A DNA stretch of 64,000 nucleotides from assembly GCA_903910645.1 (NCBI GenBank), contig CAIWAD010000124.1:16445-80444 (forward strand). Reading direction: 5' to 3'. The translations under genes were made by a program, and so were the position numbers. This DNA is from an uncultured bacterium (GTDB taxonomy: Bacteria; CAIWAD01). Below the pieces are notes generated by a model that saw only the letters and a list, made by a program, of their open reading frames with translations, made no database searches and had not been told where the DNA came from. Positions 13,729 to 33,869 of this stretch are shown piece after piece; within the stretch, counting starts at the first letter, position 1, and each line of letters starts with the position of its first letter.

Positions 13729-15846
13729 CTAGATTTCGTCCTGCATGCCCAACTCCACCACCCGGCCCGTGGGGATGCCGAAGAAGGTGCGTGCGCTGCG
13801 CGCGTTGCGGGACAGGAAGATGTAGAGCATGCGCCGCCACTTGGTCAGGTAGGTGCGCCCGGAATCGATGAGCGTGATGTGCCCCAGGTAATAGCTCACA
13901 TGGTTGAGGTTGATGTGCAGGCCGGGCAGGTTCTTGAGGATGGCGGGCACGCTAACCCCTTCCATGTAGCCGTGGCGCACATCCACCTGGTAGAATCCCA
14001 TGCCCAGTTCCCGCACCGTGGCCTTTTCGTCGAAGGGGATGGTGGGGTGCCGCTCCACCATCACGCTCATCACGATCACCGTCTTGTGCAGGACCTTGGT
14101 GTGCTTCAGGTGGTGAAGCATGATGCGTGGCACGGTGCCGCTGTTCTGGGTCAGGAATACCGCCACCTCGCCCACCCGCGCTATGGGCGTTGAGCTTTCG
14201 GCCATTTCCGCCAGGAACTGCTCCATGGGCATCAGGCTGGCCTGCACGCGGCGGCGCAAGGCAAGGTTGCCGGATTTCCAGGTGGTCATCACGGCAAAGA
14301 GCACGGCGCCCATGGCCAGGGGGAACCAGCCGCCGTGGGCGATTTTGATGATGTTCCCGGCGGTGAAGATGAAGTCAATGGCCAGGAAGGCCCCGCAAAG
14401 GGCCAGCGCGCGCCACAGGGGCCAGTTCCAGCGGGCCAGGGCCACCGCGAAGAAGAGGCAGGTGGTGATGGTCATGGTGCCCATCACGGCGATGCCGTAG
14501 GCCGCCGCCAGATTGGTGCTGCTGCGGAAAATGATCACTGCCGCCAGACAGGCCGCCATGAGCAGGTAATTCACCACGGGCACATAGATCTGGCCACGCA
14601 TGCTGTGGGATGTGTGATGCACCTGAAGGCGGGGCATGTAGCCCAGCTGCATGGCCTGCTGGGCCAGACTGTAGCTGCCGGTGATAAGGGACTGGGAGGC
14701 GATGATGGCCGCGCTGGTGGAGATGAACAGCAGGGGCCAGGTGAACCAGCCGGGACTCAAGGCATAAAAGGGATTGGCCACGCCGGCGGGTTCCGCCAAC
14801 ACCGATGCGCACTGGCCGAAGTAGTTCAACAGCAGGCAGGGCATGACCAGCAAGGTCCACGAGAGTCGGATGGGCAGTCGTCCGAAGTGGCCCATGTCCG
14901 CGTACAGGGCCTCGCCACCTGTGATGCACAGCACCACGCTGCCCAACACCAGCACGCCGTGCCAGCCATAATGCTGGAAGAAGTGAAGGATGTGCAGGGG
15001 ATTCACCGCGCCAAGAATCTCGGGGCTCTGCAGGATTCCCCCCACTCCCAGCACGGCAATGGAGGCGAACCACACCAGCATCATGGGGCCGAAGACCGTG
15101 CCGATGCGGTCCGTGCCGTGGCGCTGCACCAGAAAGAGCGCAACCAGAATGAGGATGGAAACAGGCAACACCAGGGATTTCATGCCGGGCAGGGCCACAT
15201 CCAGGCCCTCCACCGCGCTGAGCACGGTGATGGCCGGGGTGATGACGCCATCCGACAAAAGCAGTGCCGTGCCCGCAATGGCCAAGCCGGAGATGAGAGC
15301 CACCGTGCGCGGCACATCTTTGCGGGACAGGGCGGCGCGGCGCTGGGCCCGACGACTGGCTTCCTGACTCAGTTTCTGGTACTTGGCCCGCAGGTGATCC
15401 GCTTTCTCCTTCTCACCCGCATCCAGCAGGGCTTGCACTTCGGCACTGCGGCGTTCCGCCAGCCGCTTGTCCGCGGCGCGGCGCTCCGCCTCGGCGGGAC
15501 GGCCGGCTTCCACGCGTTCCTTTTCCCGCACCTGATGGGCCGCAATGAGCTTCTGGACGCTGCCCGCGCTTAGGGCCAGGGCCAACAGGCTCATCATGCC
15601 GCCTTCACCCTCGTTGTCCGCCAGCAGGATGAAGCCCAGGTACTTCACCATCACCACAATGACCATGGACCAGAAAACCAGGCTCATGACGCCGAACACG
15701 GTGACGGCGTCCACCTGCAGGTTGTAGTGGGTGCCCAGGGACTCCTTGATGGTGTAAAGGGGCGAAGTGCCAATGTCGCCGAAGACCACGCCCACGGCCG
15801 TGAGGCAAAGTCCCAGCAGACCGCGGTTGGTGATGTGCTTGTCCAT
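13729..15846 (-). CDS. kup: KUP/HAK/KT potassium uptake protein with an Arg/Glu/Ala-rich insertion of about 85 aa
   Basis: GVVFGDIGTSPLYT, ADNEGEGG and VITPAITVLSAVEGL are Kup motifs. The protein is 705 aa, against about 620 aa for typical Kup. Confidence 0.9.
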   Translation of the reverse strand: MDKHITNRGLLGLCLTAVGVVFGDIGTSPLYTIKESLGTHYNLQVDAVTVFGVMSLVFWSMVIVVMVKYLGFILLADNEGEGGMMSLLALALSAGSVQKLIAAHQVREKERVEAGRPAEAERRAADKRLAERRSAEVQALLDAGEKEKADHLRAKYQKLSQEASRRAQRRAALSRKDVPRTVALISGLAIAGTALLLSDGVITPAITVLSAVEGLDVALPGMKSLVLPVSILILVALFLVQRHGTDRIGTVFGPMMLVWFASIAVLGVGGILQSPEILGAVNPLHILHFFQHYGWHGVLVLGSVVLCITGGEALYADMGHFGRLPIRLSWTLLVMPCLLLNYFGQCASVLAEPAGVANPFYALSPGWFTWPLLFISTSAAIIASQSLITGSYSLAQQAMQLGYMPRLQVHHTSHSMRGQIYVPVVNYLLMAACLAAVIIFRSSTNLAAAYGIAVMGTMTITTCLFFAVALARWNWPLWRALALCGAFLAIDFIFTAGNIIKIAHGGWFPLAMGAVLFAVMTTWKSGNLALRRRVQASLMPMEQFLAEMAESSTPIARVGEVAVFLTQNSGTVPRIMLHHLKHTKVLHKTVIVMSVMVERHPTIPFDEKATVRELGMGFYQVDVRHGYMEGVSVPAILKNLPGLHINLNHVSYYLGHITLIDSGRTYLTKWRRMLYIFLSRNARSARTFFGIPTGRVVELGMQDEI

Positions 15847-16005: not shown

Positions 16006-16419
16006 CTATGCAGACTTCTCCGATGACGGGAGGAAGTTCTTGTAATGTTTCTCCGCGCAGCCCGGGCAGATGCCATGGCTGAACTCCGCCTCTGAGTGCT
16101 CCTTCACATAACTCTCCACCGGACGCCAGGTACCTGCGTCGTCCCGGATCTTGTGGCACACACAGCAGATGGAAAGCAGGCCGCGCAGGGTTTTCAAACG
16201 GTGCACCAGCGTGCGCGTGAAGAACAGCACTACCAATGCGCAGCCAATGACCATGGTGGTTTCAATCAGGCCTTCCACCCAATTGACCGGCGTGGCCTGG
16301 AATCCAAAGAGCTTGTGCGGCAGGTCCAGGACCTCGTCCAGCCACATAATGGCCACTACGGCCAGAAAACCCGCGGCTTCCAGCAAGGCCATGCGTCGCA
16401 ACAGACCTGATTCCCGCAT
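16006..16419 (-). CDS. Small membrane protein with a C-terminal Cys4/His-rich module (CxxCHKIRDD...FSHGICPGC)
   Basis: I chose the ATG at 16419, preceded by a GGAGG; the 172-aa ORF-track version overlaps the upstream gene. Two TM helices are followed by SICCVCHKIRDDAGTWRPVESYVKEHSEAEFSHGICPGCAEKHY. Confidence 0.6.
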   Translation of the reverse strand: MRESGLLRRMALLEAAGFLAVVAIMWLDEVLDLPHKLFGFQATPVNWVEGLIETTMVIGCALVVLFFTRTLVHRLKTLRGLLSICCVCHKIRDDAGTWRPVESYVKEHSEAEFSHGICPGCAEKHYKNFLPSSEKSA

Positions 16420-16487: not shown

Positions 16488-18143
16488 TCAATAAGGTGCC
16501 GAGTCGTGGGCGTGGCCGTGGCACATCAAGGTGCAGTTGCCCTGGCTCAGGGATTGGCGCTCCACTTTCAGCCGGCCATCCAGCGGCTCAATCCAGGGTC
16601 GGTCCAGGCGCAGCAGGCCAGGCTGGTCCGGCGAGCCGTGGGGATCATGGCAGGAGGCGCAGGACAGGGCTCCGCGCCCCGTGTGCAGGTTGTGCCAGCG
16701 CCATCCTTCACCGCTGCTGAAGGAGCTTTCCTGATGGCAGGTGAAGCACAGGGCGTTCTCGCGGTCTTCACCTGTGGCGAAAGGCGAGGGATTGAAAGGC
16801 GCCTTGAGCAGGTGTTCGATGTTGGATCCGTGGGGGCCCTGGGGACCGGCGGGATCGTCGCTGCCATGGCAGTCGGAGCAGGTGATTTGGTCCAGGGCGC
16901 TCCATTCCTTTTTCAGGCTGGGCACCTCCGGATTCAGGCCGGGACCCATCACCGGATGGTAGCTACGGTTGCCCAAATCAAAATCCCGCGCCACATCGCG
17001 CTGGCCGGGAAGCGTGTTGCCCGTGAAGCCGTGGCACTTGAGGCAGATTTCGTATTCGAAGTCCGCCACATCCTTTTTCATGCCCAATCGGCTGATGCCG
17101 CTGACACCCTCCATGCTCCCCGGCATGGTGCGCACGCTGGACTGGCTGGACACAGCGTGGGGATTGTGGCAATCCGTGCAGCGCACGGCGCGGTTTTCAC
17201 GCGATCCCGCCAGGAAGCCCACAAAGCCCGACCCGTCCGGCTCCACGGTGCGGGAACCCGTGTGCACGCTCACCGGGTGGGTGAAGAGCTTGTCGAACTC
17301 CGCCCGCATGTTGTTGGGCGAAGGAATTTCCCTGGGCCCATCCACGCTGGCGTCGTGGCAACGGAAACACAGACTGTTCTCCTCCGCCAGCAGGAGGCGC
17401 GGCTGGGGTGGTGATGCGTGGATGCTGTGGCACTGGGCGCAGCTCAGTTCGCGCATCTCCGCGTAGAGGGGCTCGTCCGGGTTGGCGTGCACACTGTGGG
17501 ACCAGCCCTCCAGTCGGTGGCACTCCTGGCAAATGGCCCCCTGGGCGGACTCCACCTTCAGGAACTTGCCACGCGTGTTGTCGTGGGGGTCGTGGCAAGT
17601 GCTGCAGCGGATGCGCTCCCCGCGCAGGGTCATGCCCGAGGTGGCGCTGTCCGGTTTGGCCAGCTCGTGGTTGCGCGACCAGGTGAAGAGGTGAGTGTTC
17701 ATGTGGGTGGGCGCAATCTGCGCTCGTTCACCCAGATCCGTCTCCCGGCTGATGTGTTCGGCGGGATCCGTGGGAAAGGCCCGGGCCACGCTGCCATCGT
17801 GGCAGGCCAGACACAGTTGGCTGCCCGGATCGGCGGGGAAACCAGGCTCCAGATCATCGAGATGGGCACCCAGGGGGAAGGGCCCGCGGGGCAGGCGCCG
17901 GTCCCACAGGGGAATGAGCTGGTCGTGCACGCGGGGTCCGTGGCACACGCGGCAGAGCTGGCGCTCCATGGTGGTGTCGGAGGGCATCCCGGTGTGCCAG
18001 TGGGTCAGGTTGTGGGGTGAGGCCTGCACGCGGGAGGCTTTCACCTGGTCGGGATCGCTGGCCCCTGCCAGCAGGGCAAAGGCGCCCAGGGAAAGCGCGG
18101 GAAGGACGATCAGGGCCGCCCGGCGGAGCGAGAACATCACCAC
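16488..18143 (-). CDS. Multihaem cytochrome c (11 CxxCH plus one CX3CH)
   Basis: Signal peptide MVMFSLRRAALIVLPALSLGAFALLAGA. Motifs: CRVCH, CLACH, CSTCH, CQECH, CAQCH, CFRCH, CTDCH, CLKCH, CSDCH, CFTCH, CASCH and CTLMCH. Confidence 0.9.
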   Translation of the reverse strand: MVMFSLRRAALIVLPALSLGAFALLAGASDPDQVKASRVQASPHNLTHWHTGMPSDTTMERQLCRVCHGPRVHDQLIPLWDRRLPRGPFPLGAHLDDLEPGFPADPGSQLCLACHDGSVARAFPTDPAEHISRETDLGERAQIAPTHMNTHLFTWSRNHELAKPDSATSGMTLRGERIRCSTCHDPHDNTRGKFLKVESAQGAICQECHRLEGWSHSVHANPDEPLYAEMRELSCAQCHSIHASPPQPRLLLAEENSLCFRCHDASVDGPREIPSPNNMRAEFDKLFTHPVSVHTGSRTVEPDGSGFVGFLAGSRENRAVRCTDCHNPHAVSSQSSVRTMPGSMEGVSGISRLGMKKDVADFEYEICLKCHGFTGNTLPGQRDVARDFDLGNRSYHPVMGPGLNPEVPSLKKEWSALDQITCSDCHGSDDPAGPQGPHGSNIEHLLKAPFNPSPFATGEDRENALCFTCHQESSFSSGEGWRWHNLHTGRGALSCASCHDPHGSPDQPGLLRLDRPWIEPLDGRLKVERQSLSQGNCTLMCHGHAHDSAPY

Positions 18144-19930
18144 AGTCTCCTCAGCACATGGATCCAGGCCTCCGTGTCCTTCCGTCCAAAGTGGTCGGGA
18201 TCGCCCACGAAGCGCAGGTCGGTGGTCAGGGTCAGCTTGTTCAGTTCAAACTCCACGAAGGAGCGCAGCCACATGCGCTCGGACAACTGGTCCCGGCCAG
18301 GCCGCCAGGTGCCGCGCACATTCAGCGAGGCAAGACGCAGCGGCTGCCAGCGCAGATGCATGGACAGGCGGTGTTCCAGGTCCACCAGATCCGCCGCCAC
18401 CAGGTGCTGCAATGCCATGGCGCTCAACTGGGCCTGCAAGCGATGGCCCCGGGCTTTCACCCACACTTCGTTCTTCAGCGTGTTGCGCAAAGTGTCGTCG
18501 CTGTAGACCAAATGGCTGCCCACATGGCGGCGCCACTCCAGACGATGTCCGCCCTGCAGGGTGCCATGGGGATTCAGTGTGCTGTTGAAGCTGGTCAACT
18601 GATCCAGCTCCTTCTGGGAAGGATCGGCCCAGGGGGCCACTGTTTCCCGGTCTTGCATGCGGAAGAGCTCCGCTCGCTGCAGGGCGCGCATGCTGAAGCC
18701 CAGCCAGGGCAGGGGCTCCACCGGCGCGATCATCTCCACCGTGGCCCGTCCCACCAGCCCGCGGCCATATTCGCGCGTCTCCGCCCAGCCGCCGCCCAGG
18801 TCGCCGCGCAGGGACAGATTGCGCTTCAACCACAGGGAGCGATCCATGAACCGGGACCAGGACTGGTGTTGGCCCGCGGCCTCCACCGCCGCCGCCATAC
18901 GCGCCAGGGGCTTCACCTGGAAGACCGCCAGGGCCAGCACATCCCGCCTGTGGACAAGATCCTCGTCCGTGATGCGCACGCGCTCGGTGGAGGCGCGCAG
19001 TTCGGCGCCCACTTCCTCCAAGGGCATCCAGCGCCAGGAGGCGTCGGCGTGACGGCGCAGCACATCCCGCTCCTCCAGCTCGGTGAAATCCGCGCCGGCA
19101 TTGATGGACAGGCGATGCTTCCCCCACAAGGTGGTGCGCAGGCGGTTCTGCCCCAGCACGCGGCGCACGCCCTTGCGCTGCACCAAAGCCGAGTTGCTGT
19201 GGACATCCACGCCACCAGGCAGCTCACCCGCCATGCTCAAGCCCGCAAGGCTGCGCTGAAGATCGAAGTCAAGGCTGTCCGCCAGGCCATACCAGGAGCT
19301 CTCGCCCCAGGCACGCGCCACGAACTGGTGCCAGGCGGGCACGCGGTGCTCCACCTCGGCCCGCATGAATCGATGGTCCGAGATGGCCTCGCCATTGAGC
19401 ACGCGACGGTTGCCCGCCACCACTCCCAGCTCGGTGGTGGGCATGGGACGCAGGGCCAGGCGCCCGCCCACGATCAGGTCGCGCAGGCGCAGGCTGTCGA
19501 TGAGGAAGGCATTGGGACGCCGCCAGCCGTGACGGGCGAAGAGTCCCAGTTCCACTCCGCCCAGGGGCGTCCAACCCAGGTCCGCCTGGAACTCGGGCGT
19601 GTAGATGCGCTGCTCGTAAAGACTGTTCTGTGCCATGGTGGCGCCGGTGCGCAGCAGCCAGTCCAGGCCGCCGGCCTTTTGCACCTGGCCATGGGCACCC
19701 ACCACCACCCGCGCCGTGTGCAGGCGCAGGTCCTCCCCGTAGGCCCCGGCGTAGCTGGAATCACTGACCCAGGTGCTGGTGTGGTCAATCCAGCCGTCCA
19801 GGGTGAAGGATCGCGACGGCTGATAGGCGGGCGCCTGCACCCATGTCGGAACCTGGAACGCGCCCAGCGCCGAACCGACAAGGGAAAGGGCGAAGAGCAA
19901 GGCGCAACGCATGTGGCGGGATCCTCTCAT
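18137..19930 (-). CDS. Predicted outer-membrane beta-barrel (porin-like) protein
   Basis: I chose the ATG at 19930, which forms an ATGA overlap with the upstream stop. Signal peptide MRGSRHMRCALLFALSLVGSALGA. The body is rich in alternating aromatic/polar segments. The C-terminus ...WIHVLRRLW ends in an aromatic residue. Confidence 0.55.
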   Translation of the reverse strand: MRGSRHMRCALLFALSLVGSALGAFQVPTWVQAPAYQPSRSFTLDGWIDHTSTWVSDSSYAGAYGEDLRLHTARVVVGAHGQVQKAGGLDWLLRTGATMAQNSLYEQRIYTPEFQADLGWTPLGGVELGLFARHGWRRPNAFLIDSLRLRDLIVGGRLALRPMPTTELGVVAGNRRVLNGEAISDHRFMRAEVEHRVPAWHQFVARAWGESSWYGLADSLDFDLQRSLAGLSMAGELPGGVDVHSNSALVQRKGVRRVLGQNRLRTTLWGKHRLSINAGADFTELEERDVLRRHADASWRWMPLEEVGAELRASTERVRITDEDLVHRRDVLALAVFQVKPLARMAAAVEAAGQHQSWSRFMDRSLWLKRNLSLRGDLGGGWAETREYGRGLVGRATVEMIAPVEPLPWLGFSMRALQRAELFRMQDRETVAPWADPSQKELDQLTSFNSTLNPHGTLQGGHRLEWRRHVGSHLVYSDDTLRNTLKNEVWVKARGHRLQAQLSAMALQHLVAADLVDLEHRLSMHLRWQPLRLASLNVRGTWRPGRDQLSERMWLRSFVEFELNKLTLTTDLRFVGDPDHFGRKDTEAWIHVLRRLW

Positions 19931-20955
19931 GGCGCCACCTCCCCGGCCGGAAGTTCCGCCGACAGGTAGGGCAGATAGCGATAGGCCTGCACGCGCCGGT
20001 TGTACTGATCCACGATGTAGAGGTGGTCCCCGTGGAAGCAGAGCGCGCTGGGCAGCAGGAACTGGTCGCCCGCCCTGCCCGTGCCGCCGAACCAGTACAA
20101 AAGGGCGCCGCTGCGGCTGAAGACCTGGATGCGGCTGAAGGCGGCATCGCTCACATAAAGATTGCCGTCGCCATCGAAGGCCAGTCCCTTGGGAAACATG
20201 AAACCGCCCGGCGAGTGGTCGTAGACTCCGAAGGAGAACAGGAAGTCGCCCTGGGCGTTGAAGCACTGCACGCGATGGTTCAGGGCGTCCAGCACCCACA
20301 GTTGACCGTCGGGATCGCTGGCCACCGCCACGGGATGCAGGAACTGGCCCTGCGCGCCGCCTTCTCCACCCAGGGTGCGCTGCCAGCGGCCCTGGCCGTC
20401 GAAGCTCTCCACCACATGGCGGCCCGCATCCACGATGTGCAGCAGCGAGCCATCCCAGTGCATCTGTCCCGGCCTCTTCCATCCCTTGGGCGAAGACAGT
20501 TCGCCCTTCACATTGCCGGATCCGGACTCCAACAGGAAGACCTTGCCCCGGCCCGCGTCGCTCATGGCGATGCCGGCGGGAAAGGCGGCCACGCCCGTGG
20601 GCGTGGCGAACAAGGGCGAGGCCATCACTTCGAACGGTCGGGGCGAGCAGCCCTCGGGGCTAAGTCGCAGAAGGCGGGACAAATCGCCGTCGCACACCAG
20701 CACGCGGCCATCTGCATCCACATCCACATCGGTGGGGCGTCCCACGCTGGCGGTGGCGCAGCTGCCCGTCACCAGGCGCAGGGCCTTCATGCCCAGGCCT
20801 CCGTCCAGTCGCACCTGGGAAAGGACATCCCCCTCCTGCAGGTAGAGCGTGTCCGTGCCGGCGGCCACCAGGGGTCGCGGCCCCTGATGCGTCACCGTGG
20901 CGCATCCCGCCGCCAGGAGCAGGGAAAGGAAAAGGACAGGCAGGCGTCGCCTCAT
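19927..20955 (-). CDS. NHL-repeat beta-propeller lipoprotein
   Basis: I chose the ATG at 20955 (ATGA overlap). Lipobox MRRRLPVLFLSLLLAAGC. NHL repeats: GQFLHPVAVASDPDGQLWVLDALNHRVQCF, FMFPKGLAFDGDGNLYVSDAAFSRIQVF and FLLPSALCFHGDHLYIVDQYNRRVQAY. Confidence 0.85.
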   Translation of the reverse strand: MRRRLPVLFLSLLLAAGCATVTHQGPRPLVAAGTDTLYLQEGDVLSQVRLDGGLGMKALRLVTGSCATASVGRPTDVDVDADGRVLVCDGDLSRLLRLSPEGCSPRPFEVMASPLFATPTGVAAFPAGIAMSDAGRGKVFLLESGSGNVKGELSSPKGWKRPGQMHWDGSLLHIVDAGRHVVESFDGQGRWQRTLGGEGGAQGQFLHPVAVASDPDGQLWVLDALNHRVQCFNAQGDFLFSFGVYDHSPGGFMFPKGLAFDGDGNLYVSDAAFSRIQVFSRSGALLYWFGGTGRAGDQFLLPSALCFHGDHLYIVDQYNRRVQAYRYLPYLSAELPAGEVAP

Positions 20956-23165
20956 GGCAGCACCCGCTTCTCGCTTGAGTGGTAATAGCGGTACTTCCAC
21001 AGGGCCTTGTCTCCATGGCAATCGGCGCAGACGGCCTCGCTTGTCTCCTGGCGCAGGAAGTCCGGCGAATGTTCGCCGCCTCCCTCGGGGTGGGCCACAT
21101 GGGGGTTGTGGCAACTGGTGCAGTCCACGCGTCCAATGGCGCCGTCCGTGCGGCCCTCGGCATCGAAGAGCGGCATGGTGCGTCCGTCGGGTCGCGTCTG
21201 GCCCGCAAGGGTCATGTACTTCTGCGGATGGCCCCACGCCTCGGGTACATGGCTGCTGGCGCCCTGCTCGCGGTGGCAGGAGAGGCAGTGCCGGGCGCCC
21301 GGACTCCAGTTCTCCGCCTTGCGCTCCAGGCTTCCATCCGGCCGCACGGCGGCCACGCTGTCCATCTGGGCATTGTCCAGGCTGCTGGCGATGATGGCCC
21401 AATCCGACACGGCGCGGTGGGTGGTGTGGCAGGCCCGGCAGGCGCTCTCGTTGGGCCTGGTCTCGCTCAAGTCGTGGGCGCTTCCCAATACACGGGTCTC
21501 GCCGGAGTGGCAGGCGGAACAGAGTTGCGCGCCGGAGTTGGCCATGCGCAGGAAGGAGCTGTTGTCGTCGCCCTTGGCGTTGGCCTGCCAGGTGGGCGGT
21601 CCGGCGGGATTCCAGTGATGTGGCTCGTGGCAGGACTCGCAGCCCACCAGCAGATCGGCCGGTTCGGGTGTGCCGTCCGCAGGTCTCCAGGTGCGCAGGT
21701 TCTCTGCGCGGTAACCCGGCAGCTTGCTGCCCTTGGGCATGGCCCTGCCCACCGGATGGCCGTGCTGGCCCAGGGTGGTGGCCCCGTGCTTGCCGGTGCC
21801 CTCGTGGCAGCTCAGGCACAGGCTGGTGAACTCGGATGCTTCCGTCCGGGCATGGCCATCGCCAAATGCCTGCTGCTTGTGCGTGTTGTGGCAGGAAGTG
21901 CATTGGCCCCGGCTGGGCTCGCTCCAGTTGAAGGAGTTGTGGTCGGAGACCAGGGTTTGGGCCTGCTCGTTGTGGCAGTTGATGCACAGTCGGCCGTTTT
22001 CGTCATCGGGCAGGCGCAGGAAGCTGCCCAGGGCATCCCCATCCTCATTGCCCGGGCCCGGCTTGTGCCCTGGCATGGCGCTCCAGCGGTGGGGGTCGTG
22101 GCAGGTGGTGCAGCTCATGCCGCCCTCACGCAGGGGAAGGCGCACATTCTGCTCCTTCACCGGACGGTCCAGGGGATGGCCGTGCCCCACCCAGCTGATG
22201 GCGCCCGCCGCGCCCTTTTCCTGGTGGCAACTAAGGCAACGGGCGTCCACGCCATCCTTCACCACATCCGCGCCACGCCCGCCGGGCAGGGGCCAGGCCC
22301 ACATGGCCGGACCATTGCCGCCATGGGTCACATGGCAGGATGCGCAGGCGTCGCTTTGCCCGGCCGTGCGCCTCGTGTTGCCAATAGGCAGATTCCCGTG
22401 TTCTTCCTTCAGGTGGTGGTCGCTTTGCAGCACGGCGAAACTGGGCTCGTGGCAGCTGCGGCACAATTGGGTGCGGTCGGCGCCATCCACCAGCTTGGCC
22501 CGCTTGTCGCTGTGCATGTTGTGGCAACTAAGGCATTCCACCGTGCCTGTGGACACATGGCGTCCGGCCAGCTCCTGTGGCAGTGCCTGCTCCAGCTTGG
22601 CATGCAGGGGATGGTCTGTGTTGCGACGGGCGTGGTCCGCGTGGCACTTCAGGCACAAGGCGGAATTGTCCGCTTCCGCGCGCAAGAAGGGCACATACTG
22701 GAACTCGCGCTCCATGCGGTTCATGTGGGGCGTGTGGCAGCTGCCGCAGTAGATGTCCCCCTTGCGATCCAGGGGAAGGCCGCTGGCGGACACCGCCGCG
22801 CCATTGCTGGGCTTGTGGAAATGCGGATCGTCCTTCTGGAAGAAGCGCCGGCTGTCCCCCACATAACCGTCGTGGCAGGACCAGCACATGTCGCGGCTGG
22901 CCACGCGGGCTTCGCGGCCGTCGATCATCACAGGATGATCCACCGGCGGCAGCAGGACGGCCATCTTCTCATAGCCTTCACCCCACTCCACATGGCAGAT
23001 CACGCACTCCTTGGAGCGGTCCATGTGCAACTGGGCGTCCGCGCGACCGGCTGGGCCCAATCCAAGGGCAAGCCACAGGCCCGCGACTCCGCAGGCCAAG
23101 GTGGCGCGAAGCAGGCGGGCTTTCAGTCTCCGGGAGTCAAGATCCATGGGCGAAAATCCATTCAT
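20952..23165 (-). CDS. Multihaem cytochrome c (18 CxxCH)
   Basis: I chose the ATG at 23165 (MNGFSPMDLDSRRLKARLLRATLACGVAGLWLALGLGPAGRADA). I counted 18 CxxCH motifs from CVICH to CADCH. Confidence 0.9.
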   Translation of the reverse strand: MNGFSPMDLDSRRLKARLLRATLACGVAGLWLALGLGPAGRADAQLHMDRSKECVICHVEWGEGYEKMAVLLPPVDHPVMIDGREARVASRDMCWSCHDGYVGDSRRFFQKDDPHFHKPSNGAAVSASGLPLDRKGDIYCGSCHTPHMNRMEREFQYVPFLRAEADNSALCLKCHADHARRNTDHPLHAKLEQALPQELAGRHVSTGTVECLSCHNMHSDKRAKLVDGADRTQLCRSCHEPSFAVLQSDHHLKEEHGNLPIGNTRRTAGQSDACASCHVTHGGNGPAMWAWPLPGGRGADVVKDGVDARCLSCHQEKGAAGAISWVGHGHPLDRPVKEQNVRLPLREGGMSCTTCHDPHRWSAMPGHKPGPGNEDGDALGSFLRLPDDENGRLCINCHNEQAQTLVSDHNSFNWSEPSRGQCTSCHNTHKQQAFGDGHARTEASEFTSLCLSCHEGTGKHGATTLGQHGHPVGRAMPKGSKLPGYRAENLRTWRPADGTPEPADLLVGCESCHEPHHWNPAGPPTWQANAKGDDNSSFLRMANSGAQLCSACHSGETRVLGSAHDLSETRPNESACRACHTTHRAVSDWAIIASSLDNAQMDSVAAVRPDGSLERKAENWSPGARHCLSCHREQGASSHVPEAWGHPQKYMTLAGQTRPDGRTMPLFDAEGRTDGAIGRVDCTSCHNPHVAHPEGGGEHSPDFLRQETSEAVCADCHGDKALWKYRYYHSSEKRVLP

Positions 23166-23188
23166 GGGGCCCTCCGGCGCGGGCTGTG

Positions 23189-24133
23189 TCAGGGAATGTC
23201 GAAGCGGATGATGCGGCTGGCGCGGCTGTCCACCACCCACCACGAAGCTCCGCAACACACAATGGCCGTGGGACCCTGGAGTTGCCAGGGCTTGCCCTTC
23301 AGCATCAACTGGCCCTGGCTCTGGGCGTACTCGTCATAGGCGTGCACCATGCCCAGGTAGCTGTCGGTGATGAGCAGGCCCTTGCCGTTCCAGCAGGCGC
23401 AGGCGCCCTTGGGACGATAGAGACGCTCGCCATCGGTGCCAAAAGAGCCCACCATGCGGTCAAAGTTCCCCAAGCGCGTGTAGGCCTGGATGCGGCCGCC
23501 CAGCACATCAATCACCATGAAGCCGTTCATGTGGCGGGACAGGATGCCCGGAAACTTGAACTCCTCCACGCGATCGCCCGGCTTGCCGTCGGGCAGGCTC
23601 ATGCCCGCCATGCGACGCATGGGGCGGATCTCGTCGGCGCCCCGGCCAATCACTTTCAACAGGGCGCCGTCGTAGCTGATCATCAGCAGGCGATGGTTGT
23701 CGTTGTCGGAGACCACCAGCTTGTCCTCCAGCGCCAGCACATCCACCGGATCGCAATTGGCCGGAAGCTTGATGGTCTGCACGGGACGCCCGTCCAGGGT
23801 GGTGACGAAAATGGAGCCGGCATCCGGATCGCTCACATAAAGGCGGTCCTTCCAGATATCGTTGCCCACCGGGTTCACAAAACCATCGTGGCGGATTTCA
23901 CGCATCAGGGCGCCCTGGGGGCTGATGACCACCACGCGCTTGTTCAGGCCGTCCACCACATAGGCGTTGCCGCGCTCGTCGGCCGCCAGGTCCGTGGGAT
24001 AAGTGGTGCCGGCGGCCACATCCTCCAGAATGCGCACATCCACCGCGCCGGCCACGCCGGCCAGCATCAGAAGCAGGATCGGGAGGAGCAGGGCTCTCCG
24101 ATCAGTACGCGGGCGGCAGGAAGAAGACTTCAT
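23189..24133 (-). CDS. NHL-repeat beta-propeller protein, secreted
   Basis: Signal peptide ...RRALLLPILLLMLAGVAGA. Repeats: PTDLAADERGNAYVVDGLNKRVVVI, NPVGNDIWKDRLYVSDPDAGSIFV and VLALEDKLVVSDNDNHRLLMI. Confidence 0.8.
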   Translation of the reverse strand: MKSSSCRPRTDRRALLLPILLLMLAGVAGAVDVRILEDVAAGTTYPTDLAADERGNAYVVDGLNKRVVVISPQGALMREIRHDGFVNPVGNDIWKDRLYVSDPDAGSIFVTTLDGRPVQTIKLPANCDPVDVLALEDKLVVSDNDNHRLLMISYDGALLKVIGRGADEIRPMRRMAGMSLPDGKPGDRVEEFKFPGILSRHMNGFMVIDVLGGRIQAYTRLGNFDRMVGSFGTDGERLYRPKGACACWNGKGLLITDSYLGMVHAYDEYAQSQGQLMLKGKPWQLQGPTAIVCCGASWWVVDSRASRIIRFDIP

Positions 24134-26681
24134 TGTCGGTCACACTCGCGGTTATGGCGCTGCTGCGCAGTTGGCGAATCCGCTCCTCGTCGAAGCCCAC
24201 GCCGTGGAAGTCCACCAGCCCACCCTCGGGCACATGGCATTCTCCACAGGTGGCGCCCGTGCCTTCGCCGGACTGGATGCGATCGTGGAAGCGGTCCTTG
24301 GTGTCCTTCATGCGTGCCTGGGTCATGGGCGCGGAATTCTGCCGGTACTCCTCGGCACGAGGGCTGTCCAGATCGGCATAAAGCGGCTTTCCGCCCACCT
24401 TCAAGCCCAGCAGGCTGGTGTAATTGTCCAGCCCGGTGAAGGGCGGTGTGCCGGTCAACTTATAGGGAGCCTTGGGCTCGCCCTGGGGCTGGCGGCGGAG
24501 ATCCAGCCAGCTCCACTCCGCGCCCTTGCGGTCGGCCTCCTTGGCGTGGCAGGTCTCGCAGGTCATGAAGCGGCTGTGCAGGTTCAAGTAGGCCCGCGTC
24601 TTGCGGTCGTTCTGGTGCGGCAACATGGCGTGGCAGAGCAGGCACTCGCTTTGGCGCAGGGTGGAATCCGCCGTCACCACCGGCTCGGCATCGTGGAAGC
24701 GTCTGTGGCGCCAATCCACATCCTCGTTGGCGACACGCAAGGGATAACTGGGATCCGCCAGCGCCGCCTCCTTGTCCGCCAGCGGGCGCTTGCACCACTG
24801 GGCCACCACATCGGCGGCGGCCGGAGCCTTGTCCACTCCCAGGTAGAGGCGGAAGGACCACACCATGGCGGCGCAGGTGACAATGGTGAGAAACAGAAAG
24901 GACCATCCCAGGGTGCGGGCCAGGGTGTCGCGCGTGCTGCGGCGACGCTCCCGGGCCCCGGTGACCTCGTTCACCAGGATGGGGCCGAACTTCTCCACGG
25001 CATCCGGCTCCATGAGCGCGCCGTGCTCCTCCTCCATGTCCTCTTCGCCCATTTTGCCGTCAATCCACACCTCGCTCATGGGCCAGCGGCTGGGCTTCCA
25101 GTGCACGTTCCAGAAATGCCACACCACGATGGCCGCCACGGCAAGGATGGCCTCCAGCGAATGCACCAGGCGGGCCAGGTCCACGATGAACTTGCTGCCC
25201 AGGTGCTCCATCCACAGGATGATGCCCGTTCCTGTCATCACCACGGAGCCCCAGGCGAAGGCCCAGTACTCCATTTTCTCGCCATAGTTGAAGAAGCCGA
25301 AGGCCGGGCGATCCTTCCGCAGGCCCAACATGAAGCTGATGTTGTGGCTGATGAGCTTCATGTCCGATGGGCCGGGGAGCATGGCCCACATCAGGGCCCT
25401 GCCGCGCTTGCTGAACACCGCATAGCCCAGGTGGTAGAAACTCACCAGCGTGAGCAGGATGGCCGCCACGCGATGGCTCCAGTCACGCACGGGCATGAAG
25501 TATTCCCACCGCACAAGGGTGCCGAAGCGCTCCGGCGGAATCCACAGCATGACGCCTGTCAGAGCCAGCAGGGTGAAGCTGGTGAACATGACCACATGAC
25601 TGATGCGCTCCGCTGGGCTCAGGCGGCGGAAGACACGACGCACGGCGCCTTCGGGCTTTTGGTGGTGGGCCGCTGCGTGCGCCTTTCGATGGCGACGCCA
25701 GGCGATGTAGTCCAGCAGATTGTGGCCCAGCATGCCGCCAATGGTGAGCAGGATGATCCAGATGTAAATGCGCTTCACCCACACCAGGGCCTGCACCTTG
25801 GTGCCCTGGTAAAGGTTGTGCATGCTGCCGGCGGTGGCGAAAGACACCGTGGCGCCATCGTGGCAACCGGTTGTGCTGCAGGTTTTCTGCAGGTTCGCCG
25901 GGTTGATCATGGACTTGGAATCCTGATGGCTCAGGATGTTGTGGTGGCCATGGCAGTCGGCGCACACGGGGCTGCGCTTGTCCCCGAAGTTGAAGCCGCG
26001 GCCATGGAAGGACTCCAGGAAGCTGGAGACCATGGTGCCATCGATGAGCAAGGTTTCAAGGCTGTCGGACACCAGCTCGTTGTCCGTGTGGCAGCGGATG
26101 CAGGCCTCGAAGTTCTGCTGATGCCTCCAGTACTCGTCCTCGCTGATGTGCAGGGCCAGGTGCTTGAAGTCCTCGTCCAGGGCGTTGTAGTTCTCGTGGC
26201 AGGTGAGGCACTTGGCCTTGGCGCGCTCCATGTCCTCCGGAAGCTTCTGCCAGTAGACGCTGTTGAAGTGGCAGTCCTTGCACACCGGCTTGCGGTGGTC
26301 GTAGGGGCCCTTCCCCGTCTTGCCATGCACGCTGGCCGCCAGGTCCCTGGCCATTTTCTGATGGGAGTAATCGGCGCCGGTGTAGGGATCGATTACATGG
26401 CAGGCCACGCTGCAGTCCACCTTTTTCACCGGCGCGCGGTGGGGCACCTGATCGATGTCCGTGTGGCACTGGCGGCAGGCGAAGCGGCCATGGATGCTGC
26501 TTTTATGGACGCCTTCGTCGATGGTGAAATTGCGCACGCCCGCGCTGTCGCTGACGGCCATCCAGGGCTTGCCATGGCAGAAGAGGCAATTCTCGGGATC
26601 GAAGGTGCTGTCCTGGGCCACGGCCAGTGTGGCCAGCAGCAGTCCCGCCAGGGCAAGGATCTTCCGCAGGGGATCCATCAT
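24102..26681 (-). CDS. Fused inner-membrane redox protein: N-terminal multihaem c domain, FdnI/PhsC-like cytochrome b domain, TM segment and C-terminal trihaem c domain
   Basis: I chose the ATG at 26681 (MMDPLRKILALAGLLLATLAVA; ATGA overlap). N-domain: CLFCH, CRQCH, CSVACH, CKDCH, CLTCH, CIRCH, CADCH, CSTTGCH. b-domain: RISHVVMFTSFTLLALTG...WSHRVAAILL...EYWAFAWGSVVMTGTG...HSLEAILAVAAIVVWHFWNVH. C-domain: CLLCH, CETCH, CGECH. Confidence 0.85.
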   Translation of the reverse strand: MMDPLRKILALAGLLLATLAVAQDSTFDPENCLFCHGKPWMAVSDSAGVRNFTIDEGVHKSSIHGRFACRQCHTDIDQVPHRAPVKKVDCSVACHVIDPYTGADYSHQKMARDLAASVHGKTGKGPYDHRKPVCKDCHFNSVYWQKLPEDMERAKAKCLTCHENYNALDEDFKHLALHISEDEYWRHQQNFEACIRCHTDNELVSDSLETLLIDGTMVSSFLESFHGRGFNFGDKRSPVCADCHGHHNILSHQDSKSMINPANLQKTCSTTGCHDGATVSFATAGSMHNLYQGTKVQALVWVKRIYIWIILLTIGGMLGHNLLDYIAWRRHRKAHAAAHHQKPEGAVRRVFRRLSPAERISHVVMFTSFTLLALTGVMLWIPPERFGTLVRWEYFMPVRDWSHRVAAILLTLVSFYHLGYAVFSKRGRALMWAMLPGPSDMKLISHNISFMLGLRKDRPAFGFFNYGEKMEYWAFAWGSVVMTGTGIILWMEHLGSKFIVDLARLVHSLEAILAVAAIVVWHFWNVHWKPSRWPMSEVWIDGKMGEEDMEEEHGALMEPDAVEKFGPILVNEVTGARERRRSTRDTLARTLGWSFLFLTIVTCAAMVWSFRLYLGVDKAPAAADVVAQWCKRPLADKEAALADPSYPLRVANEDVDWRHRRFHDAEPVVTADSTLRQSECLLCHAMLPHQNDRKTRAYLNLHSRFMTCETCHAKEADRKGAEWSWLDLRRQPQGEPKAPYKLTGTPPFTGLDNYTSLLGLKVGGKPLYADLDSPRAEEYRQNSAPMTQARMKDTKDRFHDRIQSGEGTGATCGECHVPEGGLVDFHGVGFDEERIRQLRSSAITASVTDNEVFFLPPAY

Positions 26682-27481
26682 TCCTCCAGCATGGGGAAGT
26701 GGAAGGGTTCGTAATTCTCCACCATGCCCACGGCGGCGGAGTGCGTCAATTCGTGGATGCGCGGTTGGCTGAAGCCCAGCGCGACCCATGGGAAAGCGGC
26801 TTCCGGCGTGTGGCAGGCCAGGCAGGCGCTGGGCGTTTTGCCCACATGCTCCTCGGCGAACTCGCGGAACTGGGCCTCGTCGATCTCCAGCCCGCTCAGC
26901 GCGTCGGCGCGGAACTGCTTGTAGCGCTGGTCATCGTAGGGCGTGAACAGCAGGGTGTTGCCGCCTGCCGCCGTGAGCACAGGGACGATGCGGCTGATGA
27001 AGTTGTGCCGCCCGGACAGGACGCCATCCTTCCCCCGCTCAAGTCCATAGGGGCCCAGGGCCGTGACCGTGTTGTCCGTGTCGAAGGAGGTCCACTCCAG
27101 CGAGGTGCGCGCGCGCATGGTGTCGTCCAGATGGCAGGCCAGACAGCTCATGAAATGGCTGTGCTGGTTGTAGAAGGCACGGCGCTTGGGATCCTTGGTG
27201 TGCGGGAAAAGCGGGTGGCATGTCAGGCAGGCCTCCTGCTGGCCCAGGGGCAGCAGGCTGTGCACCTCGATGTTGTGGAAGTGCTGCTCCTGGTTGCGGT
27301 AGTCCTCGAACCAGGTCTCCAGCTGCTCCACATGGTCCGTGAAGTGGCGCCTTCCCTGCTTTTCCTCCTCGTGGGCCTTGTGGGGACGGTTGGTCATCCA
27401 CACCAGCCAGGCGGACACAGCGCTGCCGATGACCAGGGCCGTAAGGCCGTAGGCCACCCGGCTGAAGGTTCTCATGCTCAT
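26678..27481 (-). CDS. Membrane-anchored trihaem cytochrome c, homologous to the C-terminal domain of the 24102-26681 product
   Basis: N-terminal TM segment VAYGLTALVIGSAVSAWLVW. Motifs CLTCHPLFPHTKD, CLACHLDD and CLACHTPE align with CLLCHAMLPHQND, CETCHAKE and CGECHVPE. Confidence 0.85.
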   Translation of the reverse strand: MSMRTFSRVAYGLTALVIGSAVSAWLVWMTNRPHKAHEEEKQGRRHFTDHVEQLETWFEDYRNQEQHFHNIEVHSLLPLGQQEACLTCHPLFPHTKDPKRRAFYNQHSHFMSCLACHLDDTMRARTSLEWTSFDTDNTVTALGPYGLERGKDGVLSGRHNFISRIVPVLTAAGGNTLLFTPYDDQRYKQFRADALSGLEIDEAQFREFAEEHVGKTPSACLACHTPEAAFPWVALGFSQPRIHELTHSAAVGMVENYEPFHFPMLEE

Positions 27482-28263
27482 GCGTCACCATCCCGGCCGG
27501 CGGCGCCGTCCTGCTTGTCGTCGTCGTCGTGGCGTCGCACACGGCCACGCTTCAACTGCTCAAGGATGTCCTCCAGCTCGCGGGGATGCTCGTGCATCAT
27601 CTCCTCTTCGCTAAGGGTGCCGCGGTACCACACCTTGTTGGCGGGCCACACGCGGGGATTGAAGTGCACGTTGTAGAAGTGCCAGATGACAATGGCCAGG
27701 AAGGCCAGCAGGGCCTCGTCACTGTGGGCCACATAGGCGATCTGGATGACCTCTGAGGGGAACCACTGGCCGCTGGCCTCCGGATACCACAGCAACAGGC
27801 CGCTGCCCGCCATGATGAACATGCCCCAGAACACCGCCCAGTAGTCGAATTTTTCGATGTAGGAGAAGCGGTGGAAGCGGGGACGCTCCTCACTCAGGAA
27901 AAGGAAGTAGCGGATGTTCGTGGCAATGTCCCGGGCATCCTGCAGGTTCGGCAGCAGATGCATGCCGGAAAGGGGCGTGCGGTTGCGCACGATGTTGAAG
28001 AACACATAGAACACATGGACGGCGAAATCGGCGATCATCACCACCGCGGCCACGCGATGAATGGTGCGCACCGTGTCGATGCCCCCGAAAAGGTTGATGG
28101 AGTGCGACCAGAAGGCGGTGTCCGGGAACTTGATGGGGAAGCCCGTCACCACCAGGACAATGAATGGCACAAACATGAAGATGTGCTGCAGGCGCTGGCT
28201 GAGCGAGAAACGCACATACTCCCGCCTTCCCCCCACCACGCGAATGCGATCACTCACTCTCAT
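27478..28263 (-). CDS. Cytochrome b subunit (FdnI / Ni-Fe hydrogenase b-type / PhsC-like)
   Basis: I chose the ATG at 28263 (MRVSDRIRVV...). RLQHIFMFVPFIVLVVTG, TIHRVAAVVMIADFAVHVFYV, DYWAVFWGMFIMAGSG and HSDEALLAFLAIVIWHFYNVHFNP. The ATGA overlap is with the downstream gene. Confidence 0.85.
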   Translation of the reverse strand: MRVSDRIRVVGGRREYVRFSLSQRLQHIFMFVPFIVLVVTGFPIKFPDTAFWSHSINLFGGIDTVRTIHRVAAVVMIADFAVHVFYVFFNIVRNRTPLSGMHLLPNLQDARDIATNIRYFLFLSEERPRFHRFSYIEKFDYWAVFWGMFIMAGSGLLLWYPEASGQWFPSEVIQIAYVAHSDEALLAFLAIVIWHFYNVHFNPRVWPANKVWYRGTLSEEEMMHEHPRELEDILEQLKRGRVRRHDDDDKQDGAAGRDGDA

Positions 28264-29296: not shown

Positions 29297-30215
29297 AGCA
29301 GATCCGCTCTTTTGCCGCCCGCAGGAGCTTGGAGGCGGGGGCGCCTCCGCCCGAGCAGGCGGGATTTGGGCTGTGACAGGTGGCGCAGGCCACCGTTCCC
29401 CCGGGTCCCAGGGGCAGGATCACGCCGCTCTGGGCCTGGAACCGTTCCAGCGCGGCGGCGGTGTTCATCTTCAATCTGTTGTGCAGCACGGAGCGTCCCA
29501 CATGCTCCCGCTCATGCTTCACATCCTTGTGGCACTTCAGGCACAGTTCGCCCTGGGGCAGCTGAAGGCCCTTGCCGGGCTGGGCCGCATCGCCGCCCTC
29601 CGCGCTGTGGCAGTACCAGCAGGCCTTGTTGTCCTCGGACTGGCCGTGGGGATAGGTCTGCTTGTAGAGTTCGCGCGTGTGGCACTGGTAGCAGAAGTCC
29701 GTCTCCCGGGGCCATGGTCCGCCACGCAGCATGCTGCGGTTCTCCCGCGCCACGCGATAGCTGGTGGTCTCGTCGCAGTTGATGGCGTGGCAGGTCAGGC
29801 AAGTGCCACGGCCTTCCTTCAGGCGCGCATTGGCCGGACTGGGCGCCTTGGAGCTTGCCCCGGAGAAATCCGTGGGATGGATTTCACGCAAATGGGCCTG
29901 GGGGTCGTGGCATTCCACACAAGCGCCGTCCCGCCAGTTGGCCGCCGCCGGAGTCTGCCCGGGCGTGTGGCATTGGTCGCAACGGTTGGGCCGGCCGTGG
30001 GGGTTGTCCTTGCCAGGCAGAGTCAGGTGCTGCTTCTGGGCGGGCCTGGGTGCCGGGGCCGCCGCACGCGCGGGCACGGGTGGCTTGCACAAGCCACAGG
30101 ACGGTTTGGCGCAGTCATCATGGGTGGCCGGGGCAGGAGCCGCTCCCAGCTGGGCACCAAGCAGCAGCGCCAGCAAACCGACAACCCAGGAACCTGACCA
30201 CGAGCGTTGAACCAT
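29277..30215 (-). CDS. Periplasmic octahaem cytochrome c
   Basis: I chose the ATG at 30215 (MVQRSWSGSWVVGLLALLLGAQLGAA). Motifs: CDQCH, CVECH, CLTCH, CYQCH, CWYCH, CLKCH, CATCH, CYACH. Confidence 0.9.
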   Translation of the reverse strand: MVQRSWSGSWVVGLLALLLGAQLGAAPAPATHDDCAKPSCGLCKPPVPARAAAPAPRPAQKQHLTLPGKDNPHGRPNRCDQCHTPGQTPAAANWRDGACVECHDPQAHLREIHPTDFSGASSKAPSPANARLKEGRGTCLTCHAINCDETTSYRVARENRSMLRGGPWPRETDFCYQCHTRELYKQTYPHGQSEDNKACWYCHSAEGGDAAQPGKGLQLPQGELCLKCHKDVKHEREHVGRSVLHNRLKMNTAAALERFQAQSGVILPLGPGGTVACATCHSPNPACSGGGAPASKLLRAAKERICYACHDL

Positions 30216-33860: not shown

Positions 33861-33869
33861 GGCGCCGCC

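Follow-up and report, generated by a model that had tools for sequence, protein, structure and literature searches.

Gene clusters that unite an OmcE-type cytochrome, β-propeller lipoproteins and a large β-barrel have already been published (omcE, osc, uet and the clusters of D. ferrophilus). In minimal omcE clusters, OmcE is always accompanied by two multihaem cytochromes, two β-propeller lipoproteins and a large β-barrel, for which a role in secretion or anchoring has been proposed (bioRxiv 10.1101/2025.10.22.684050). Here we describe a locus of this kind in a 64,000-nucleotide (nt) stretch of DNA from an uncultured bacterium (contig CAIWAD010000124.1; the whole stretch is called the window below). 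In this locus, an NHL propeller lipoprotein, an outer-membrane β-barrel and a 12-haem cytochrome are encoded by three overlapping genes within a respiratory operon. We consider that the operon most likely, though far from certainly, wires the membrane quinol pool to the cell surface. The locus is not an Mtr system, not a Uet system by composition, and not a canonical omcE cluster.

In the osc (OmcS-companion) cluster of Geobacter sulfurreducens, an NHL protein is encoded together with a very large cytochrome (oscJ/oscI). The adjoining companions are proposed to be needed to secrete or mount the extracellular cytochrome (as cited in PMC13194489 and bioRxiv 10.1101/2025.10.22.684050). The Uet system of Ca. 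Tenderia and Gallionella comprises the 28-strand barrel UetC and the NHL propellers UetH and UetI, encoded next to the 11-12-haem “doubled CXXCH” cytochrome UetJ (bioRxiv 10.1101/2022.05.06.490989; PMC10734462), and its propellers were proposed in 2022 to structure the complex (bioRxiv 10.1101/2022.05.06.490989). In D. ferrophilus, NHL genes lie among the genes of large outer-membrane cytochromes (DFE_0448-0451 and DFE_0461-0465), and were proposed in 2018 to encode stabilisers or scaffolds of complexes (PMC5815863; PMC9769857). The idea of an NHL scaffold is therefore not new. The ext cluster of G. sulfurreducens contains the rhodanese lipoprotein ExtH, the porin ExtI and MccSep (PMC13510729, PMC5877670); ExtI has been described as a solute porin (PMC13510729; PMC5877670; PMC6148476), and S0 respiration depends on MccSep, a periplasmic polysulfide reductase with selenocysteine (PMC13510729). 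Finally, a 2026 preprint reports “porin-scaffold-cytochrome” systems with OmcE-like cytochromes in Acidobacteriota, and NHL is unmentioned in a 2025 article in ISME J (PMC12133095).

Organization of the operon

The G+C content of the window is ~65%, and the region of interest lies inside a run of minus-strand genes. The NHL, cytochrome and barrel genes are the outer-membrane half of a 13-gene respiratory operon of ~17.8 kb, which runs from ~34094 to 16488 on the minus strand. All positions refer to the whole window. The genes, in the order of transcription and with lengths in amino acids (aa), are as follows.

32532-34094, minus strand: first gene of the operon, candidate selenocysteine (Sec) cytochrome, a lipoprotein of ~520 aa with 9 CxxCH and 2 Cx4CH motifs
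31472-32464, minus strand: two-domain rhodanese lipoprotein (Pfam Rhodanese, E 1e-22; lipobox VFTGC)
30223-31410, minus strand: lipoprotein with immunoglobulin-like and rhodanese domains (Pfam Rhodanese, E 4e-18, and Big_9/PKD; lipobox ILGGC)
29277-30215, minus strand: mhc8, 8-haem cytochrome with signal peptide (8 CxxCH)
28250-29296, minus strand: 6+2-haem cytochrome with C-terminal membrane helix, part 1 of a split CbcL-like quinol:cytochrome module
27478-28263, minus strand: di-haem cytochrome b of the HydC/FdnI type, split module (Pfam Ni_hydr_CYTB, E 2.6e-16)
26678-27481, minus strand: 3-haem membrane-anchored cytochrome, split module, matching the C-terminal part of the fused gene
24102-26684, minus strand: CbcL-like fusion of cytochrome c, cytochrome b and a 3-haem tail, the c/b fusion (Pfam Ni_hydr_CYTB, E 8.8e-13, and cytochrome c domains)
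23189-24133, minus strand: NHL1, six-bladed propeller of 314 aa (Pfam NHL, E 5.8e-8; signal peptide, no lipobox)
20952-23165, minus strand: cyt18, cytochrome of 737 aa with 18 CxxCH (cleavable signal peptide, no lipobox)
19927-20955, minus strand: NHL lipoprotein, six-bladed propeller of 342 aa (Pfam NHL, E 3.6e-20; signal peptide ending LLAAG-C)
18137-19930, minus strand: outer-membrane β-barrel of 597 aa with C-terminus ...RRLW (~28 strands in an AlphaFold2 model)
16488-18137 (alternative GTG start at 18143), minus strand: cyt12, cytochrome of 549 aa with 11 CxxCH and 1 CxxxCH (signal peptide, no lipobox)
16006-16419, minus strand: small two-helix membrane protein with a Cys-rich C-terminus (no Pfam match; membership of the operon uncertain)

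The gene order of the outer-membrane half, its coordinates, the haem counts (18; 11+1) and the two six-bladed NHL propellers are all as an earlier reading of the window, made from the sequence only, had described them. This sequence-only reading had also joined the last four genes by overlapping stop and start codons and had taken these overlaps as support for a physical complex. ATGA overlaps are present at the cyt18/NHL lipoprotein (20952-20955) and NHL lipoprotein/barrel (19927-19930) junctions. The third junction, between the barrel and cyt12 genes (GTGGTGATG), also overlaps, by 7 nt from the GTG (18143) or by 1 nt from the ATG (18137), but it is not a literal ATGA. The ATG at 18137 is better placed than the GTG, with a better-spaced GGAG and one base in common with the barrel stop. 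The gap between NHL1 and cyt18 is 23 nt, and the c/b fusion upstream overlaps NHL1 by 32 nt. Because nearly all junctions in the operon are tight or overlapping, the overlaps point to an operon more than to a complex, for which they are weak evidence. A promoter scan gave one 10/12 match at 34312-34285, but the number of matches was not above that in shuffled sequences.

The small membrane protein encoded at 16006-16419 has homologues (53% identical) after cyt12 in the related loci L001/L002 and L010, which are the closest relatives, and not in L003, L005 and L013. Its C-terminus reads …SICCVCHKIRDD…HGICPGC…, and the CxxCH in it probably belongs to a cytoplasmic cluster of Cys residues and would not bind a c-type haem.

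Conservation of a three-gene core

The neighbourhoods of barrels at 22-63% identity were recovered, giving 10 independent related loci (L numbers below), and the proteins of the window were mapped onto them. The full order is Sec-candidate cytochrome, rhodanese lipoprotein(s), mhc8, an optional split c/b/c module, the c/b fusion, NHL1, cyt18, NHL lipoprotein, barrel and cyt12. The part from mhc8 to cyt12 recurs in L001/2, L003/4/9, L007, L008, L010, L014 and L015; the genes upstream of mhc8 were recovered in only some of these full-order loci. The haem counts are fixed at 8 (mhc8), 18 (cyt18) and 11+1 (cyt12, invariant across all orthologs), and the 1-4 nt overlaps of the NHL lipoprotein, barrel and cyt12 genes are kept. 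Since order, haem counts and overlaps recur at only 22-63% barrel identity, the arrangement is not due to chance.

Smaller loci separate the core from the add-ons. L005/L006 hold only the Sec-candidate cytochrome, a rhodanese, mhc8, a propeller-like lipoprotein, the barrel and cyt12, without NHL1, cyt18 and the c/b fusion, while L013 keeps the c/b fusion and NHL1 and is missing cyt18. In both cases a diverged ortholog of the NHL lipoprotein occupies the same slot (26% identity in L005; 27%, from the lipobox onward, in L013). On the basis of L005/L006 and L013, the NHL lipoprotein, the barrel and cyt12, with mhc8, form the core, and cyt18 is dispensable. The genes of the NHL lipoprotein, barrel and cyt12 are an invariant triad, always adjacent and overlapping; mhc8 always, and a rhodanese lipoprotein nearly always, accompanies them, and the c/b fusion, NHL1 and cyt18 are a dispensable add-on.

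Two further loci, read among those that a profile of the OmcE-like module (see below) had found, carry related accessory proteins. L011, from a Geobacteraceae metagenome-assembled genome (MAG), encodes a large protein without Pfam match (truncated where the contig stops), an NHL lipoprotein with 30% full-length identity to that of the window, an OmcE-like protein of 254 aa that matches PDB entry 7tfs at E 1e-22, and a 394-aa cytochrome that corresponds to cyt12 residues 232-549 (31% identity, E 6e-41). L012, whose barrel relatives are labelled Desulfobacterales, has homologues of NHL1, cyt18 (~20 haems), mhc8, the NHL lipoprotein (32% identical) and cyt12, and also a free OmcE-like tetrahaem protein; this set surrounds a 646-aa barrel, modelled with ~28 strands and a 90-aa insert. 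The sequence matches indicate that the accessory proteins of the window, L011 and L012 systems are homologous.

In L012, the cyt18-like gene (702-3219, 15+5 haems) and the cyt12-like gene (10001-11711, 5+7 haems; full-length but frameshifted) are each split in two frames. These broken frames could reflect an assembly error, pseudogenisation or programmed frameshifting.

The two propellers are not equivalent

Each propeller has six blade motifs spaced 41-48 aa, with one 66-aa insertion in NHL1. The NHL lipoprotein matches the six-bladed NHL domains of TRIM71, Thin and Brat in the PDB at E 1e-41. Its lipobox Cys is present in every ortholog, and a canonical lipobox is absent from all orthologs of NHL1, cyt18 and cyt12. 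Thus, among NHL1, cyt18, the NHL lipoprotein, the barrel and cyt12, the second propeller is the one protein with a conserved lipobox, and neither cytochrome carries one. This pattern would fit an anchoring or capping role for the second propeller, and NHL1 is predicted to be a soluble periplasmic protein. Because L013 has NHL1 and the c/b fusion and no cyt18, NHL1 is not an obligate partner of cyt18; it travels with the CbcL-like c/b fusion, not with cyt18.

The sequence-only reading had proposed two [NHL + large cytochrome] units around one barrel, in which the propellers, as scaffolds, plugs or substrate-binding heads, could take over from the extracellular lipoprotein cytochrome of MtrCAB-type systems. 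We took this model to mean equivalent units and an MtrB-like barrel. Its expectation that NHL genes adjoin these cytochromes was borne out in every relative examined, and the gene order with its overlaps, the large barrel, and the presence of one propeller that is a lipoprotein, like MtrC, are in keeping with such a model. However, the units are unequal, since cyt18 is gone and NHL1 kept in L013, and both are gone, together with the fusion, in L005/L006. The propellers share only 24% identity and only one is lipidated, no Mtr family model was reached at its cut-off, and a propeller without cofactor cannot pass electrons. Equivalence of the units is therefore not supported, and the model as a whole appears quite improbable.

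A predicted 28-strand barrel of a rare family

No Pfam or NCBIfam model matches the 597-aa barrel protein. We built an AlphaFold2 model from 17 family members (predicted local distance difference test score, pLDDT, 74; predicted template modelling score, pTM, 0.61). The model contains 28 strands, on average 13.4 aa long, and no plug domain. The extracellular loops are ≤15 aa, and the periplasmic turns are ≤5 aa, save one 33-aa helical insertion. The strands are amphipathic: one face is hydrophobic (mean Kyte-Doolittle +0.97) and the other, towards the lumen, is polar and rich in Arg (-1.20). By standard barrel geometry, the Cα diameter is ~50 Å for 28 strands vs ~47 Å for 26, and the free lumen is estimated at ~40 Å. 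As far as the model can be trusted, the strand count of the barrel is thus not porin-like and its lumen would be wide enough for a protein, as the sequence-only reading had anticipated. With 28 strands, no plug and no constricting loops, it follows that another protein must fill the lumen; otherwise the barrel would be an unregulated ~40 Å hole. The conservation of the lumen and lipid faces did not differ (p 0.24), and a conserved internal binding surface is unsupported.

Residues 36-62 of the barrel include many invariant residues (Y36, G46, D49, H50, D57-S59) and are the part that AlphaFold modelled worst (pLDDT <50). This N-terminal segment may fold only on a partner and is a possible contact site for a cytochrome or a propeller.

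We also considered and rejected an LptE-like arrangement in which the whole propeller would sit within the barrel: at ~45-50 Å a six-bladed propeller is wider than the ~40 Å lumen, in which a cytochrome must also fit.

The barrel family is rare. Among 5.8 billion clusters there are 17 members; a full hidden Markov model search of 1.84 billion representatives yielded 21 clusters, and a search of 185,579 species genomes with the narrower barrel alignment A1 found the family in 3 of them. The MAGs concerned are labelled Delongbacteria, Calditrichota, Cloacimonadota, Marinimicrobia and “Bacteroidaceae/Acetofilamentum,” and these labels point to an uncultured lineage of the FCB (Fibrobacterota, Chlorobiota and Bacteroidota) group with an unstable taxonomy.

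Cytochromes of the operon

Residues 32-208 of cyt12, with its first four haems, match PDB entries 7tfs_A (E 1.4e-14) and 9yuq_N (E 3e-6). The latter is the OmcE homologue of D. soudanensis (bioRxiv 10.1101/2025.10.22.684050). The match to OmcE spans nearly the whole subunit and includes the N-terminal histidine of H-D/N-L, the histidine of NxH, and CHxxHDN. The invariant histidines of the module lie in PHNL, NTHLF and CHDPH, and three distal-His positions are conserved with OmcE filament subunits. Entry 7tfs is the OmcE filament of G. sulfurreducens. The N-terminal part of cyt12 is thus a tetrahaem module of the OmcE type, to which a module with eight haems is fused. Because L011 encodes both halves as adjacent separate genes, we conclude that cyt12 is a fusion of an OmcE-like gene with its neighbour.

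This homology raises the possibility that cyt12 is secreted by an usher-like machine made of the barrel and the propeller lipoprotein and then polymerises through its OmcE-like module into an extracellular filament. The relationship to a filament subunit, including the three distal-His positions, and the published omcE and osc clusters with the same accessory set favour such a nanowire machine. We nevertheless judge it distinctly unlikely: cyt12 has 549 aa and eight extra haems in cis, the six-frame translation of the 64-kb window contains no stand-alone OmcE-like tetrahaem subunit, and L011 and L012 have separate OmcE-like subunits. The fused form looks more like a monomeric wire or the base of a filament.

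For cyt18 and mhc8, no sequence match was found in the PDB. There are 18 CxxCH motifs in cyt18 of the window, L001, L003, L007, L008, L010, L014 and L015, and the protein, absent from L005/L006 and L013, is accessory. By comparison, mhc8 has eight haems in every ortholog recovered whole, the minimal locus L005 included, and is a candidate periplasmic or barrel-inserted cytochrome.

CbcL-like quinol modules

The fused gene at 24102-26684 encodes 860 aa with 9 CxxCH and 2 variant motifs, arranged as eight haem motifs, a Ni_hydr_CYTB domain and then three haems. From a match of architecture only, it is a putative CbcL-like inner-membrane quinol oxidoreductase. The c/b fusion is kept at 43-84% identity in all full loci and is missing from L005/L006. 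Upstream of it, the product of 28250-29296 shares 30-33% identity with the N-terminal portion of the fusion, and that of 27478-28263 matches the NCBIfam model of the formate dehydrogenase gamma subunit at E 1.2e-10, under the curated cut-off.

The region 24102-29296 (minus strand) thus holds a tandem duplication of a CbcL-like module, with one copy split in three genes and the other fused; the corresponding parts are 26-36% identical. The fused copy only is found in L003, L010 and L013, and a two-gene split occurs in L007, L014 and L015.

Upstream genes and a possible chalcogen substrate

In the first cytochrome gene of the operon, an in-frame TGA (33870-33872) stands at residue 75, in a Gly-rich tether (context GGG-U-GG; candidate Sec peptide ...SAGGG-U-GGAVAPLEPYAK). 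Read-through is favoured by the alignment with related loci, in which this TGA is kept in L005, L013 and L015 and replaced by an Asp codon in L014. Because the open reading frame (ORF) downstream of the TGA lacks a signal peptide of its own, read-through would be needed for c-type maturation. A small hairpin ~13 nt after the TGA keeps two compensatory pairs, which, with four sequences, is only suggestive. No SECIS (selenocysteine insertion sequence) or other RNA family of Rfam was matched and no tRNA genes were found in the window, and the single-sequence fold of the 86 nt that start 3 nt upstream of the TGA is no stabler than those of shuffled sequences (z -0.49). Since Rfam and the stability test add nothing, the suggestion of a SECIS comes from this small conserved hairpin only. 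The protein has no match in the PDB or NCBIfam, and it is not a homologue of MccSep: it gave no match to 9wt8/9wt9 at E≤1, whereas a control peptide finds both. We regard it as a candidate new selenocysteine multihaem lipoprotein.

Rhodanese homologues lie upstream of the conduit in L003, L005, L007, L009, L010, L013 and L015, so that rhodanese lipoproteins adjoin it in seven of the eight distinct loci in which the upstream region was recovered; the exception is L014. In the window, the active-site loops of the rhodaneses are intact (CxxGxxS/A), with CYTGQTS twice in the rhodanese encoded at 31472-32464. Both rhodanese lipoproteins of the window sit between the Sec-candidate cytochrome and mhc8 (30223-32464), an arrangement that parallels ExtH of the Geobacter ext cluster.

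A chalcogen is plausible as the terminal substrate because this context, rhodaneses with intact loops and an outer-membrane barrel, resembles the ext region. By this analogy, the rhodaneses and the Sec candidate together suggest that what is finally reduced may be a chalcogen (S0, polysulfide or selenite), either instead of a metal oxide or in addition to one. One way to account for these genes is that the barrel imports polysulfide or selenite, as proposed for ExtI, and that the cytochromes, propellers, rhodaneses and Sec candidate form a periplasmic chalcogen reductase chain. The close association of the rhodanese lipoproteins with the conduit, the Sec-candidate cytochrome in four lineages (window, L005, L013 and L015, with an Asp-type homologue in L014) and the union of ExtH, ExtI and MccSep in one cluster (PMC13510729, PMC5877670) are all compatible with a solute channel. 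This explanation nevertheless seems unlikely to us, since a plug-less 28-strand barrel without constriction loops would leave the hole described above unless it is filled with protein, since the barrel is translationally coupled to the 12-haem cytochrome in every locus, and since the Sec candidate is not related to MccSep.

Comparison with described systems

The omcE clusters of Desulfuromonadia resemble the window in combining an OmcE-type module with β-propellers (at least one of them a lipoprotein), other multihaem cytochromes and a large β-barrel. In addition, the NHL lipoprotein and both halves of cyt12 have homologues in the OmcE-like Geobacteraceae locus. Two β-propeller lipoproteins are the rule in omcE clusters; the window has two six-bladed propellers, of which, as in all orthologs, only one has a lipobox. 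There are, however, several differences. First, the OmcE-like module of the window is part of a fused protein (12 haems, 549 aa), whereas OmcE is a stand-alone subunit of ~220-250 aa. Second, the order in the omcE-like loci L011 and L012 is barrel, propeller, OmcE-like cytochrome, and that in the window is propeller, barrel, cytochrome. Finally, the window is without a glycosylation island, unlike the omcE clusters, and its host, which is Delongbacteria-like or of the FCB group, is outside the five phyla reported. The osc cluster is similar in concept, with companion genes beside an extracellular multihaem cytochrome; OmcS is unrelated to OmcE-type modules and the folding factor OscH has no counterpart in the window.

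The barrel, NHL and 11-12-haem components of Uet are, by description, analogous to those of the window. Uet also has the isomerase UetB, the cupredoxin UetF and the c7 trihaem proteins UetD/E/G, whereas the operon of the window contains no gene for a peptidyl-prolyl isomerase, a cupredoxin or a c7-type trihaem protein. Furthermore, electron uptake in aerobic autotrophs has been proposed for Uet, and the conduit of the window goes with CbcL-like quinol modules and rhodaneses. Source names were looked up for 10 clusters of the barrel family, and neither Tenderiales nor Gallionellaceae were among them.

MtrCAB and the Geobacter Pcc systems (OmaB/OmbB/OmcB) share with the window the logic of a barrel with a periplasmic and an outer cytochrome. 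OmaB has 8 haems and OmcB 12, which mirrors the pair of mhc8 and cyt12. The MtrB barrel has 26 strands vs the 28 of the window, and the MtrB/PioB family was not matched. Against the MtrA/DmsE model TIGR03508 (cut-off 192.2 bits), cyt12, cyt18 and mhc8 scored 67.9, 78.4 and 26.6 bits, respectively, and the sole match to the MtrC/OmcA family (cut-off 209.3 bits) was mhc8 with 20.6 bits. In MtrCAB and Pcc the outer cytochrome is lipidated, whereas in the window a propeller is the lipoprotein and the outer cytochrome is not lipidated.

ExtI has ~21 strands, compared with 28 in the barrel of the window. The extHIJKL region with MccSep is like the window in its rhodanese lipoprotein, barrel, multihaem cytochromes and cytochrome with an in-frame UGA (PMC13510729; PMC5877670; PMC6148476). 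MccSep itself has five haems and Sec/Cys at a C-terminal site, and the candidate in the window has 11 motifs, is a lipoprotein and carries the UGA at residue 75. In the D. ferrophilus clusters no porin was recognised, whereas the barrel of the window is central to the conserved triad.

Proposed mechanism

In the quinol-to-surface pathway that we favour, the CbcL-like proteins would oxidise quinol at the inner membrane, and cyt18 and mhc8 would relay the electrons through the periplasm. The barrel lumen, which would otherwise be open, would be occupied by a cytochrome. The 8-haem rod at the C-terminus of cyt12 is the most likely candidate, with mhc8 as the alternative, and the OmcE-like head of cyt12 would be exposed outside. 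The lipid-anchored propeller would dock on the rim of the barrel, where it may hold or export the unlipidated cytochrome; a role of this kind has already been suggested for propeller lipoproteins and barrels in the omcE and osc clusters.

Several points weigh against this pathway. The terminal strands of the barrel model and the conserved segment 11-68 are at pLDDT <50, so the number of strands could be 26-28. MtrB is only a generic fold match to the barrel. In hhalign comparisons, the barrel profile of the window had no significant match: against the profile of the L012-type family it gave E 0.026 and a probability of 1.9%, over the last 90 residues only, and neither the L012 barrel itself nor the partial barrel of L011 was matched. 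Because barrel homology is not demonstrable, the argument for a common machinery is drawn from the propeller and the cytochrome and not from the barrel. A profile search showed that the OmcE-like module is very common (>4900 proteins of 200-300 aa in many phyla), and the module alone is no proof of an extracellular location. The identity of the cytochrome in the barrel and the face on which the propeller sits are inferred. Moreover, Fe(III) oxide reduction persists in D. ferrophilus mutants without cytochromes from comparable NHL clusters (PMC9769857).

The quinol-to-surface pathway can be combined with the evidence from the upstream genes into a more specific picture, which we put forward only tentatively and consider somewhat unlikely in its entirety. 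The operon might provide a self-contained respiration, from quinol to the cell surface, of an insoluble chalcogen (S0, polysulfide or selenium). A hitherto undescribed Sec-containing 11-haem lipoprotein and the rhodanese lipoproteins would be the catalytic head, wired through the OmcE-derived cyt12, which the propeller lipoprotein would hold in the 28-strand barrel of the new family. The host would be a Delongbacteria-like candidate phylum without known extracellular electron transfer, and the fused OmcE module would possibly be an ancestral or base-plate form of the nanowire.

Other genes in the window

Beyond the operon, a 1238-aa ORF without any Pfam match (8162-11878, minus strand) lies downstream of the kup potassium transporter gene (13729-15846). 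A fused B12-binding/MeaB/methylmalonyl-CoA-mutase protein with IcmF-like architecture (38208-41510, minus strand) and adjoining genes for RecD-like and UvrD/PD-(D/E)XK helicase-nucleases (45947-51663, minus strand) form an ordinary housekeeping context.

Significance

The mechanism is wholly inferred, and the general idea behind it is already in the literature. What is new is a rare barrel family for which comparison with another syntenic barrel family, the only one tested, has shown no homology; the cyt12 fusion, the Delongbacteria-like host lineage and the conserved in-frame TGA in the first cytochrome of the operon are also new. The locus provides a natural “experiment” in which one cytochrome is fused in the window and split in Geobacteraceae, and the same accessory set is found around barrels of ~28 strands without detectable sequence similarity. 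The graded loci (triad only; triad, fusion and NHL1; full set) separate the core from the add-ons, which work in Geobacter has yet to settle for the propellers. The design of propeller lipoprotein, giant barrel and OmcE-type cytochrome is thereby extended to a lineage beyond the five reported phyla, in which the rhodaneses and the candidate selenoprotein cytochrome suggest a respiration of sulfur or selenium that can be tested.

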